Below, one piece after another: positions 3,227-51,729 of a DNA stretch of 64,000 nucleotides. Position 1 is the first letter of the stretch. Each line of letters opens with the position of its first letter. The translations under genes were made by a program, and so were the position numbers. Below the pieces are notes generated by a model. It did not search any database. It saw only the letters and a list, made by a program, of their open reading frames with translations, and was not told where the DNA came from. The stretch lies in the NCBI GenBank assembly GCA_965200245.1, contig CBDATS010000004.1:1376001-1440000 (forward strand). Direction: 5' to 3'. The DNA comes from a bacterium. GTDB lineage: Bacteria; UBA8248.

Positions 3227-3676
3227 TTGTACCGTAAAAACGTGGAATTCGGTGTCGGCATATTCGTTGTGGCAGGAATTCTGGCGCTCGCCTATCTTTC
3301 GATCAATCTCGGCGGTCTGGATATCTTCGATGACGGTGCGTATGAAGTCTCAGCCAGGTTTACGACCGCGACGGGCCTGAGACGAGGCGCCTCCGTGGAA
3401 ATGGCGGGCGTGCGCGTCGGACGGGTTAGCGAAATCTCCCTCGACGGGGAAGATGCGAAAATCACGCTGCGCATTGATGAAAACCTCAAACTCTCGCGGG
3501 ACTCCATCGCCTCCATTCGTACGAAAGGGGTCTTGGGTGATAAGTACGTGAGCATCAGTCAGGGAGGATCGGAGAAAATCATCCCCCCGGGCGGGTCGAT
3601 ACGCGAGACGGAACCACCGGTTGACATCGAGAAACTCATCGGAGACTTTATTTTCGGCAATGTGAAGAAGGAATAA
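3227..3676 (+). CDS. mlaD: MlaD MCE-domain protein
   Basis: N-terminal TM segment, GLRRGASVEMAGVRVGRV, IRTKGVLGDKYV; TTG start. Confidence 0.92.
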   Translation: MYRKNVEFGVGIFVVAGILALAYLSINLGGLDIFDDGAYEVSARFTTATGLRRGASVEMAGVRVGRVSEISLDGEDAKITLRIDENLKLSRDSIASIRTKGVLGDKYVSISQGGSEKIIPPGGSIRETEPPVDIEKLIGDFIFGNVKKE

Positions 3677-49704: not shown

Positions 49705-50846
49705 ACCTACTCCTCTCAAAGAATTTTTCAGGTTGGCAGTTACTTTTTTTTCAAAGCGCGGGTAATCATTCGCACGCATAATACAGGCTGTCTCAGCTAC
49801 GGAACCTCCAAGATTGACTTCCAGTCAAACCGGAACCACCGGAAATCCTCATCTGCCTCATTCAAGTAATGCACCTTTCATTTTAAGTCAACCCTCTCGT
49901 TAGTTGACTTGGCGATTCGCCTGAGTTCATTGTGTCGCAGGAGTGAATGCGGTCGTGAATGAGAGCGAAAATCCCGCCTTCAGAAGAGACCGACCCTTGC
50001 GGACTCCAAGGTATTTTCAGTGAGACAATGGTCATGTGAAAGTTCCACTATTCTGCAATCCGCTTTTTTCCTGGTTCTGCCCGGCGTTGTTTTTCCCCGG
50101 GCCACGGCACGGCGCACCACACCAGTTCCATAGCTTATATCGACCAGGAAGTCGGCAAAGTCGAAACAGGAAACTTCGAGATACGACAGACCGCCATGCC
50201 GCCGAAATTGCGAAAACAAGGAAACACCCCAAAACCCATTGAACAGACGCACAAACTTCTGTCTCGATTCACGCATCGCTTTGAGGTACGAATACGGGAT
50301 CAGAAAACCGGAAAGCCGCTTACAAAAAATCTGGCTGTGAAGCTGGGATTCACCCACAAAGAATGGGAAAGAACCTTCACGCTTGAAAGGTTTCGGAAGG
50401 ATAAGCGAGAGATTTACGGCAAAAACGTCAAACTGGGCGAAAAAGGCGCATACACCATCTCGACCACCATATCCGGTCTGGTGACTCATCCCGTAAGAGC
50501 GCGGTTTTCTTTCGATTTCGACCCGGAATCCGTAAAGGGCGTGATGCGAGATCTGGAAAAAATCCTGGCGATCCTTGGCCGGGAAACGCTTGTCTTGGAT
50601 CTGGACGGCGAGTTGATTCCTCGCCCCAACGAACGCTACATTCAGCGATTGACCGAAAAATTCGGGAATTATCTACTTGAATCCGCAAGTCTGAATATCC
50701 TGATTTTGCGTTTTCCGGGTGTATCGTTTTGCGTCACAGACGGAATTACTGCCAGAACCAGTGTATGCGCCGCCTTCTTCCATTCAACCCATAGACCAAC
50801 TCTGAGAGTAACTCGAAAATGGGCATTTTCGTATATAGTTCCCGTT

Positions 50847-51110
50847 TTACACATGATTGGGAACATCGCCCCAGTATGCGCCTTGAGCAGCTTCCAGTTC
50901 TTCCTCGGTGAGCCGGGACGAAGGCGGAAGGACGAGATAGCTGTTCTCGGCGTCGTCTTCCATCACATGCAGGTTGGAAGTCTCCGGCACCGCGATTCCG
51001 AACTCCCCGGATACCACGGCCCTCGGTTCGGAGATAAGACGGGCACGGAACTCCTCGCTGTCGCCTGCCTTCCCGATCAGGTGCTCGCGCATCCCGGAAA
51101 GAGATTTCAT
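50847..51110 (-). CDS. NHLP (nitrile hydratase-like leader peptide) RiPP precursor, 87 aa
   Basis: KAGDSEEFRARLISEPRAVV...LHVMEDDAENSYLVLPP..LTEEELEAAQGA leader; putative core YWGDVPNHV; AGGAG RBS upstream of the ATG. Confidence 0.87.
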   Translation of the reverse strand: MKSLSGMREHLIGKAGDSEEFRARLISEPRAVVSGEFGIAVPETSNLHVMEDDAENSYLVLPPSSRLTEEELEAAQGAYWGDVPNHV

Positions 51111-51191
51111 TTTGGTCTCCTTTCCTGGAGAAATGAGTATGGGTTGATACCCCGATGTTTTCGCTTTTTTTTGCATCGTCATCATGAGCAG

Positions 51192-51219
51192 GGTATAGGA
51201 TATTCCGACGGGAAAGCAA
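51192..51219 (-). promoter_or_regulatory. Possible sigma70 promoter inside the cassette, facing the NHLP gene
   Basis: Minus strand TTGCTT-N16-TATACC, about 80 bp upstream of the NHLP start. Confidence 0.35.
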
Positions 51220-51729
51220 GAAATTTTCTGGCGTTTTCTCGTGAGGAACAGGCTTCCTCCCGGAAGCCCGTCCGTATGTTCCCCGATCTCCCGGGAAACC
51301 GGCGGCCGAAGTATCCGTTTTTCCAGAATTCAGGGAATAAGACTTGTGGAATTAAGTATGTAATTCCCAAAAATTCAGATATTTTGTCCCGTGGATATCG
51401 AACCTCAGGGAAGGAGAAGCGCAGGAACTGTATGATGACTTGACCCGAAAACTACTCGACCTCGCCGATACCATGAAGAAAAACGCCAAAAACCCGATTA
51501 CGATCAGCTCGCCGGCAACCTCGCCACCGCCAGAAACCTTTGCTCGCAATGTCACCATATCTTTCAGGAAGCGGATTCAACCGGAAAACCCGTCAAGTTG
51601 CCTGCTTCGCCATCGAATCGATAGTCCGACCGCTCAAATGCCGTGATGTTTGCAACATGCCGGACTCTGGGGTATTCCTTTTCCCGAAACGGCTTATCGC
51701 CGATACGTTTGTTTTTTCGTGGGTGAATT

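Follow-up and report, generated by a model that had tools for sequence, protein, structure and literature searches.

An insertion cassette with IS1595-type ends and a RiPP precursor passenger, multiplied in the genome of a sponge-associated bacterium

The cassette and the gene it interrupts

The 64,000-nt stretch of DNA analysed here, called the window below, corresponds to positions 1376001-1440000 of contig C4 in genome G000, an assembly of 3.68 Mb in 15 contigs that is 95.84% complete and 8.11% contaminated. It contains a 705-bp element at window positions 50664-51368, which interrupts a host gene and carries as its passenger a precursor gene of the nitrile hydratase leader peptide (NHLP) kind, as found among peptides that are made on ribosomes and modified after translation (RiPPs). 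The 29-nt inverted ends of the element are identical at 24/29 positions and are flanked by a perfect 8-bp direct repeat, as the initial annotation of this DNA had described and as a reading of the sequence and a repeat search confirmed. The features of the locus are the following:

50196-50663, plus strand: 5' part of the host gene, 156 codons, no family match
50656-50663: left copy of the target-site duplication, AAAAATTC, 8/8 identical to 51369-51376
50664-50692, plus strand: terminal inverted repeat lying 3' of the passenger gene, GGGAATTATCTACTTGAATCCGCAAGTCT, mean pairwise identity 0.88 among 8 unique copies
50743-50814, minus strand: nested 72-nt palindrome of paired IS256-type ends, predicted to form a long hairpin within the 3' untranslated region
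50820-50843, minus strand: internal IS1595-type end, GGGAACTATATACGAAAATGCCCA, 3 nt past the stop codon
50847-50876, minus strand: stop codon and predicted core YWGDVPNHV (after ...AAQGA), a hypervariable segment with identity 0.43
50877-51110, minus strand: NHLP leader with LxxxxL motif (RLTEEEL), TIGR03793 59.9 bits
51117-51121, minus strand: ribosome-binding site AGGAG, 6 nt 5' of the ATG, kept in 8/8 aligned copies
51191-51219, minus strand: promoter-like TTGCTT-17 nt-TATACC, named so from its conservation (8/8 copies)
51340-51368, minus strand: terminal inverted repeat lying 5' of the gene, GGGAATTACATACTTAATTCCACAAGTCT (reverse complement), mean pairwise identity 0.90
51369-51376: right copy of the target-site duplication, AAAAATTC
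51377-51646, plus strand: 3' part of the host gene, with a frameshift near 51487-51497 (blastx frame 1, then frame 3)

The element is a true insertion into the host gene. Upon removal of the element and one repeat, the host frame 50196-50663 resumes in frame at 51377, and the prediction that related genes would be contiguous across KF|RY is borne out by all seven congeneric loci (L033-L039), which are uninterrupted, with the match to the N-terminal part ending adjacent to the start of the C-terminal part. The junction, aligned for three of these seven loci, reads ...AEKF|RYFVPWISNLREGEAQ... or, in a longer form, ...AEKF|RYFVPWISNLREGEAQELYDDL.... The host-gene frameshift may have two sources, decay that followed the insertion or a misassembled homopolymer; together with the nested palindrome and the internal IS1595-type end it had to be added to the initial annotation. 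A repeat search of the region returned the arms of the element as the longest inverted pair (32 nt, 81%) and listed the 8-bp duplication as a direct repeat. Each end is single in the window at <=3 mismatches, and 0/100 shuffles were matched. The public sequencing runs that hold this stretch are sponge metagenomes from two studies and runs labelled with one coded organism, and DNA contigs of both studies cross the right junction without differences (X1 record 8, X3 record 16). None of the public-run contigs joins across an empty site, which we use neither for nor against fixation of the insertion.

Along the strand of the passenger gene, the upstream end is followed by the promoter-like block, AAGGAG and ATG, the leader, the core and stop codon, the internal end, the palindrome and finally the downstream end. 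Neither the list of open reading frames (ORFs) nor TIGR and Pfam family scans revealed a transposase ORF within 50664-51368, and as no PF12762-type transposase ORF lies inside, the element is non-autonomous. The initial annotation was accurate in this respect and also in reporting an intact 87-aa NHLP gene with its own ribosome-binding site. A terminator scan returned nothing, and an Rfam scan of 50500-51500 gave no match at E<=1. The 3' part folds with z = -1.95 and 9/200 shuffles fold equally well, so that the hairpin is described here from its palindromic sequence and not from its energy.

When the element DNA was compared with 40 relatives, its sole matching part was a segment at element positions ~102-152. 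This segment was rejected as a cassette homologue, being the end of an IS256-type insertion sequence (IS), and its 50-nt motif was also rejected as a coding sequence, the frames being short and shifted. In congeners, an IS256-type transposase gene starting MH(E/K)DTTIPF.NPAFRDELSELVREGAQRII has the same 50 nt as its left end (loci L040-L048). IS256-type insertion sequences with these ends are abundant in the genus, and one congener has a similar back-to-back end pair alone. In G000 the palindrome occurs also at C4:590319, C4:706371, C4:1055335, C5:733779, C5:817630 and C8:133045.

With its intact 87-aa gene and expression signals, the element is no miniature inverted-repeat transposable element in the strict sense of a small and non-coding one. 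Mobile insertion cassettes are defined as one or more passenger genes enclosed by inverted ends of the IS type and by a target duplication, without a transposase, and are presumed to be mobilised in trans; MIC231 of the Bacillus cereus group is what we take to be an example. The element has the same make-up, and we call it a cassette below. Further examples of mobile insertion cassettes, according to the accessible text of the respective reports, are the qnrS2 and qnrD cassettes (PMC3913671, PMC5444012, PMC2600179).

A family of cassettes in one genome

The ends are not confined to this insertion. The 705-bp sequence has 55 matches in the genome, six of them full length, and a search with a profile of the ends listed 46 matches, 35 of them at E<0.01. 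Pairing of the profile ends yields 11 end-to-end elements, which measure 599-1005 bp, and leaves 13 solo ends. All 11 end-to-end cassettes hold NHLP genes (12 genes, as one element has two), with different cores, so the expectation that other copies would carry such cargo was correct. At strict boundaries, the target duplications of the cassettes agree at 8/8 positions in three cases, at 7/8 in three and at 6/8 in two; the perfect 8-bp duplications are AAAAATTC, AAAATTCA and TATTTATT, and a number of the targets are similar to (A)AAATTC. In three cassette pairs the two members agree at 99-100% over 692-1004 nt, and their 600-bp flanks are without shared similarity. As the flanks share nothing, the members of these pairs are recent, fresh copies at new sites and not duplicated strain contigs.

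Mean pairwise identity among the 8 unique two-ended copies differs strongly between segments: the ends reach 0.88-0.90, the 5' untranslated region 0.78, the leader 0.76, the 3' part 0.66 and the core 0.43. The ends are thus the best-conserved segment and stand above the coding leader. Counted as an end pattern with <=2 mismatches, the ends occur 30 times in this genome and 0 times when the pattern is reversed as a control. Among 22 congeners of G000, 19 have none, and the remaining three have 1, 1 and 3. NHLP matches at E<=1e-8 number 35 here as against 0-7 per congener. The cassette expansion is specific to this genome.

The internal IS1595-type end differs at 2 positions from a typed 24-nt consensus of the ends of congener PF12762 elements. 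In four distinct copies, which occupy five loci because one of them has an identical duplicate, it lies 1-3 nt past the stop codon; it overlaps the ORF end in one further copy, and lies 247 nt past the stop in two identical disrupted copies. Since the 599-bp copy C15:389741 has neither the internal end nor the palindrome, the 3' part in its present form was probably added later. Such an anatomy brings up a composite history, in which a ~185-bp miniature element, reaching from the internal to the outer end, landed behind a gene with a solo upstream end, and the present copies spread mostly by recombination between such pieces. The positions of the internal end relative to the stop codon, the copy without the internal part and the existence of one-ended copies would be in line with it, as would similar cores (xYDPFGGxxP) behind leaders of two subtypes. 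However, it is the outermost flanks that show the matching duplications, and entire cassettes of 692-1005 bp recur as identical copies in unrelated flanks, from which it follows that the whole unit moves. We give hardly any credence to a spread by recombination, and a composite origin is compatible with movement of the cassette in trans and no replacement for it.

As a separate observation, an insert of ~240 nt is common to two otherwise different cassettes, where it lies in or just after the core region and breaks one precursor. Its loci in G000 are C8:198493-199450, C4:570771-571728, C2:243327-244331 and C15:315994-316998.

Kinship of the ends and the transposase

By sequence comparison, the end type of the cassettes is that of IS1595-family elements. 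A 2877-bp element of a congener (L060) encodes a PF12762 transposase, the IS1595 DDE domain (137.2 bits), has a SocA/Panacea passenger and is flanked by a perfect 8-bp duplication, TTTGCAAA. Its ends, GGGAATTATATACGAGATTACCCAAG, agree in their first 13 nt with the cassette end type, which has the form GGGAATTATATAC in congeners, and share CAAG at positions 23-26; the two ends of the window copy match 12 and 11 of the 13 nt of this form. A scan of JGI metagenome contigs with a 26-nt end pattern returned 12 stretches, including a complete IS1595-family element of 1823 bp that ends at locus position 3481 (L133). Both ends of L133 fit the cassette pattern. It is flanked by the 8-bp duplication CAAATTTA, encodes a 305-aa transposase (PF12762 149.8 bits, with the IS1595 zinc ribbon) and carries as a second gene a 169-aa passenger without a family match. 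The same 26-nt pattern gave 0 matches in viral contigs.

The cassettes thus resemble the passenger-carrying insertion sequences of the IS1595 family in the 8-bp duplication, found here as in the transposase-bearing L060 and L133, and in ends that start with GGGAATTAT, as seen in both of these elements. They differ from them in having no PF12762 transposase inside, and no partner with identical ends was found in the genome. Ends of this form presumably fall under the ISNwi1-group label of the ISfinder scheme; for the cassette this subgroup placement is putative.

PF12762 is widespread in the genus, with matches at E<=1e-10 in 18/23 genomes. G000 itself has five matches, one of which is complete (C14:2196-2633, 137.3 bits), and the C14 and L133 transposases are 40% identical. 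Contig C14 (C14:1-10152, L031) contains one IS1595-type and two DDE_Tnp_1-type transposase genes and IS1595-type ends at 1703, 3231 and 7627. The ends at 1703 and 7627 are doubtful as the pair of one element, with the other DDE transposase genes lying in between.

The same ends also bound cargo other than NHLP genes in three congeners (G022, G012, G006). These are an element of 729 bp that is AT-rich and has a duplication of 7/8 (L052 5057-5785, equal to G022:C1:1637057-1637785), a 1090-bp element in G012 (L150) and one of ~900 bp in G006 (L151). As other small ORFs without a family match lie between the same ends in these single-copy cassettes, the end system is a general cargo platform in the genus. 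Beyond it, a gammaproteobacterial metagenome-assembled genome (MAG) of the Oxydemutatoraceae (OZ245010.1, L054) has a cargo-free miniature element of ~262 bp with the same 26-nt end, inward from 3530, which means that the end type crosses phyla. Two further solo ends lie on the L054 chromosome.

We consider it probable that the element is a non-autonomous mobile insertion cassette of the IS1595 type, which is moved in trans and thereby amplifies and scatters RiPP precursors. Several observations weigh against it. The duplication is <=4/8 in 3/11 two-ended copies, none of them recognisable. TIGR03793 has 39 matches in the genome, of which 34 exceed the curated cut-off (50.9 bits) and about 26 lie outside an intact two-ended cassette: 12 matches stand between two inward-facing ends, 11 have an upstream end only, 1 a downstream end only and 15 none. 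In the upstream-only copies the end lies 200-430 nt before the gene, or 724 nt in the case of a second gene, and for ten one-ended copies no convincing second end turned up within 2.5 kb, neither by a flank 8-mer nor as a degenerate end with <=9 errors. In view of the one-ended and end-less matches, not every NHLP paralogue is a mobile cassette. As to the transposase, the PF12762 element of C14 starts GGGAATTATACGG... and has only the first 9 nt in common with the cassette ends, and C14 is a 10-kb IS-dense contig of uncertain ownership in an assembly with 8.11% contamination, which may be a collapsed repeat or come from another organism in the bin. A scan of one genome per species found 7 stretches with the end pattern, none with a confirmed transposase, and no autonomous element with the same 29-nt ends was found in this assembly or in the 22 congeners. 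A transposase of the family expected by the initial annotation exists in L133, which has the same end type, and an intact PF12762 gene exists on C14, but a partner with identical ends was not found in the assembly, and mobilisation in trans is something that we infer.

The copies without a second end or a duplication lead to the question whether these are ordinary paralogues that arose by segmental duplication, with the 'ends' representing a conserved regulatory palindrome. The eleven NHLP matches with an upstream repeat only have it at 240-430 nt from the gene, a distance befitting a regulatory site, and the 3/11 two-ended copies without a duplication would need no further comment under such an explanation. 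Against this, the window element lies precisely inside a conserved ORF and has an 8-bp duplication, and the unrelated flanks of the identical copies start exactly at the ends. Moreover, the same ends bound a transposase-encoding element and, in congeners, unrelated cargo, and they are better conserved than the coding leader, so we strongly disfavour segmental duplication and regard it as very improbable.

The NHLP precursors and their cores

The passenger gene of the window copy lies on the minus strand at 50847-51110 and encodes 87 aa. Without its initial Met, the protein (86 aa) matches TIGR03793 with 59.9 bits (E 1.6e-16) and PF02979 (NHase_alpha, cut-off 27.2 bits) with 36 bits. Its leader ends in ...LEAAQGA|YWGDVPNHV, and paralogues have GG, GA or GS before their cores, which points to a putative cleavage site after a GG/GA-type motif. 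The leaders fall into a few subtypes and keep ...RLTEE(Q/E)L...(GG/GA). The cores, in contrast, are hypervariable: they comprise 3-15 residues, are nearly all Cys-free and rich in Tyr/Trp/Asp, and ~22 are distinct, for example YWGDVPNHV, YYDWDDAF, EWVWH, GYLWPY, APWYNDGWPE, QYDPFGGRIP, YGDGYWGA, GDPWYWRD and NLYY. A diversity-generating retroelement was considered, with no search made for one, as the source of the core variation and judged unlikely, since the core lengths differ.

A search for precursor homologues scored 12 candidates, of which 9 passed, and 8 of these were this genome's own; the word index is coarse for short proteins, so the search says little on how rare the precursors truly are. 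An independent metagenome protein (P0074) has the core EWVWH, identical to that of copy C5:368709, behind a diverged leader.

Precursor families with conserved leaders and variable cores are known from marine cyanobacteria, where many scattered ProcA genes encode prochlorosins that are served by one ProcM. Both systems have scattered precursors, long conserved leaders of the NHLP/Nif11 kind, hypervariable cores and a maturation or export that is encoded elsewhere. Here, in contrast, transposon ends and duplications bound the copies, and no LanM/LanC was found, in a genome set in which the control of the LanC search was silent as well. Our literature search found no copying mechanism of the transposon kind described for the prochlorosins.

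Export and modification candidates

The initial annotation had suggested maturation of the precursors by a distant gene cluster. A maturase of the proteusin type was not found in support of this, and an exporter of the NHLP type was. The genome has a single such exporter, at C8:222528-224672, which matches TIGR03796 with 902 bits (cut-off 853.3) and Peptidase_C39 with 112.9 bits. It is neighboured by a second ABC protein (TIGR03797 683.9, below the cut-off of 709.4) and a HlyD-like protein (TIGR03794 81.9, below 156.2). In the 95.8%-complete assembly there is no match at E<=0.001 to SPASM radical SAM proteins (TIGR04085) or to YcaO (PF02624); epimerases without SPASM were not searched for. A LanC-like search gave no match here, and its control was also silent in every genome. 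The passengers count as proteusins in the broad usage of the term, which according to the accessible text of PMC10858898 covers any precursor with an NHLP leader; in the strict usage a radical SAM epimerase or other proteusin maturase would be expected with them, and none was detected.

In congeners, the region by the same exporter contains a cluster for an NHLP-leader fusion protein, a desaturase-like (desaturase/GlnE-like) protein, YcaO, a 372-aa unknown protein and an NHLP gene. The precursor that this gene encodes has the core LCCCW in 12/13 loci and LSCCW in one. As far as the accessible text of PMC10858898 and PMC12426817 goes, LCCCW is the core reported for SrpE of the sponge srp cluster, in which YcaO makes thiazolines and the LxxxxL motif of the leader engages the enzymes. 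At the corresponding site of G000 (C8:216-219 kb) only an NHLP fragment and a partner gene (see below) with an in-frame stop are left. The cassette precursors share with SrpE, as presented in these texts, an NHLP leader with LxxxxL and a sponge-associated host. They differ from it in that their cores are hypervariable and Cys-free as against the fixed LCCCW, that the gene is mobile and stand-alone, and that YcaO was not found here.

Two further candidates for modification are encoded beside NHLP genes. A cytochrome P450 (P450) gene at C2:3836-5128 has a one-ended cassette on one side and, on the other, a non-mobile NHLP gene (C2:5280-5558) with the core NLYY. In congener G002 (L140, G002:C1:3708491-3712510), P450, an NHLP gene with the core IYY, a partner gene, a HlyD-like ORF and a C39-type ABC ORF stand in a row, the latter two recognised by eye from their translations, with no family scan. 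This arrangement suggests a P450-modified NHLP peptide. Biarylitides and cyptides, which are P450-cross-linked RiPPs, have very short cores rich in Tyr/Trp/His, a likeness to the situation here, where P450 adjoins NHLP genes; in the accessible text on them, their precursors are tiny or short-leadered and not of the NHLP type. A link between the P450 and the cassette-borne precursors may be read from 45% leader identity and the make-up of the cores. The leader of the cassette is 45% identical to the P450-adjacent leader, 41% to another native leader and 32-38% to SrpE-like leaders.

The second candidate is a partner family of uncharacterised proteins of 340-420 aa, with ~70 database members. 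In this genome and in congeners, its genes adjoin three kinds of non-mobile NHLP genes, among them those of the srp-type cluster of the congeners. It has no Pfam, NCBIfam or PDB-sequence relative, and we regard it as a candidate RiPP partner or maturase. The C39/ABC exporter, possibly with P450 and the partner family, most likely represents what the initial annotation had called a distant cluster.

Selfish passenger or possible library generator

In the mechanism that we propose, an IS1595-family DDE transposase acting in trans would recognise the ~29-nt ends and insert copies at AT-rich 8-bp targets, often of the (A)AAATTC form. The passenger would be a self-contained expression unit, consisting of promoter-like region, ribosome-binding site, NHLP leader, short core and 3' hairpin. 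Repeated rounds would have amplified the cassette in one sponge-associated species, leaving leaders, ends and 3' parts alike as the cores diverged. The precursors would most likely be handled by the single NHLP-type export system of the genome, the C39 peptidase domain of which would cut after GG/GA and release Tyr/Trp/Asp-rich peptides of 3-15 residues, and P450 and/or the partner family may modify the precursors before this cleavage.

Some observations on the cargo weigh against this mechanism. The precursor is intact in 6/8 unique two-ended copies, which speaks for selection on the cargo, and the other two are damaged, one being split by the ~240-nt insert and one reading through its stop. 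As a copy with a disrupted precursor still transposed, mobility is independent of the cargo. The possible promoter of the initial annotation stands as far as TTGCTT-17-TATACC is conserved in 8/8 copies, but a consensus promoter scan did not flag it, so that the promoter is deduced from conservation only. The sole match of that scan lies inside the left end and points outward, with 0.6 expected by chance, and was not used. Contigs from RNA libraries cover 50365-51097 with a leader-to-flank depth ratio of ~43 vs ~30 in DNA runs; as the two ratios are close and the RNA data consist of contigs, not of reads, they are indistinguishable from carried-over DNA. In the RNA runs X6 and X7 there is no cover over 51099-51700 and the left-junction contigs reach only 30 nt into the element, short of the 31 nt required, and they were not used as evidence.

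Could the cassette then be purely selfish, with the NHLP gene as an unused accidental passenger and the variety of cores as neutral decay? The two disrupted-precursor copies at C4:570771 and C8:198493 would agree with this, being 99% identical in unrelated flanks, and so would the RNA-library contigs that do not separate from carried-over DNA. It would also be in keeping with the facts that no maturase lies inside any cassette and that the srp-type YcaO cluster of the congeners was not found here, its site holding just a piece of an NHLP gene and a partner gene that has a stop in frame. An unused gene, however, is not what 6/8 unique copies look like, which have an open precursor, a conserved leader, LxxxxL and GG/GA, with cores that vary in length and are nevertheless stop-free and rich in Tyr/Trp/Asp. 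Ribosome-binding site and promoter-like block are kept in 8/8 copies, an intact NHLP-type C39/ABC exporter is retained, and the EWVWH core is identical in the independent P0074 in spite of its diverged leader. We therefore think that a purely selfish cassette is unlikely.

Beyond the mobilised cassette itself, it is possible, and we put it forward tentatively, that the transposon acts as a generator of peptide libraries, in which a unit of promoter, leader and core is copied, each copy evolves a new core, and all copies use one shared export and maturation apparatus. The internal end that abuts the stop codon may take part in the replacement of cores. If true, such a generator would be a new, explicit route for the expansion and diversification of RiPP families, and the sponge symbiont may gain variable signalling or antagonistic peptides from it.

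RiPP precursors are known to form large families in which the leaders are conserved and the cores hypervariable, and the spread of their copies has been left to unspecified duplication. The marks of transposition described here, namely ends, duplications, identical copies elsewhere and an interrupted host gene, provide a testable mechanism for the spread of precursors. The cassette agrees with mobile insertion cassettes in its inverted IS-type ends, target duplication, passenger and absence of a transposase, and it differs from them in a RiPP-precursor cargo with its own expression signals, in at least 11 two-ended copies (30 ends) and in the diversification of the cargo. To our knowledge, mobile insertion cassettes are single- or few-copy elements that carry enzymes or resistance genes. 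The range of their cargo is hereby widened to the substrate gene of a biosynthetic pathway, instead of a resistance gene or an enzyme. A search of full-text literature, with subscription journals and supplements outside its reach, found no account of NHLP or RiPP precursors in transposable or miniature inverted elements, in agreement with what the initial annotation had supposed. What is new is the combination, a cassette with a RiPP precursor as passenger that was amplified and diversified in one genome. In practical terms, the conserved ends are a sequence handle for retrieving precursor libraries from metagenomes, and the ~22 distinct cores give peptidomics a defined set of candidates, which may also be expressed heterologously together with P450 and the partner family.

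Loci of the srp-like cluster and the partner family

The srp-like clusters of the congeners, each preceded by two ABC genes (ABC, ABC), and the members of the partner family are located as follows:

L125 (G020:C1:1410001-1426000): srp-like cluster
L126 (G013:C4:3522001-3538000): srp-like cluster
L096-L124: further srp-like cluster loci
G000 C2:5675-6748, C2:7329-8597, C5:367036-367992 and C8:325395-326573: partner family members
L125 4419-5537: partner family member
G000 C4:1314992-1315969 and C8:216389-217393: partner family members with an in-frame TAG

An ABBA-prenyltransferase-like fold was considered for the partner family, which was guessed from how the invariant residues are arranged and carries no weight as evidence here. 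The residues that are invariant in the alignment of the family (A1) include E47, D58, E111, D113, R183, E248, H304, K306, K328 and Y330.

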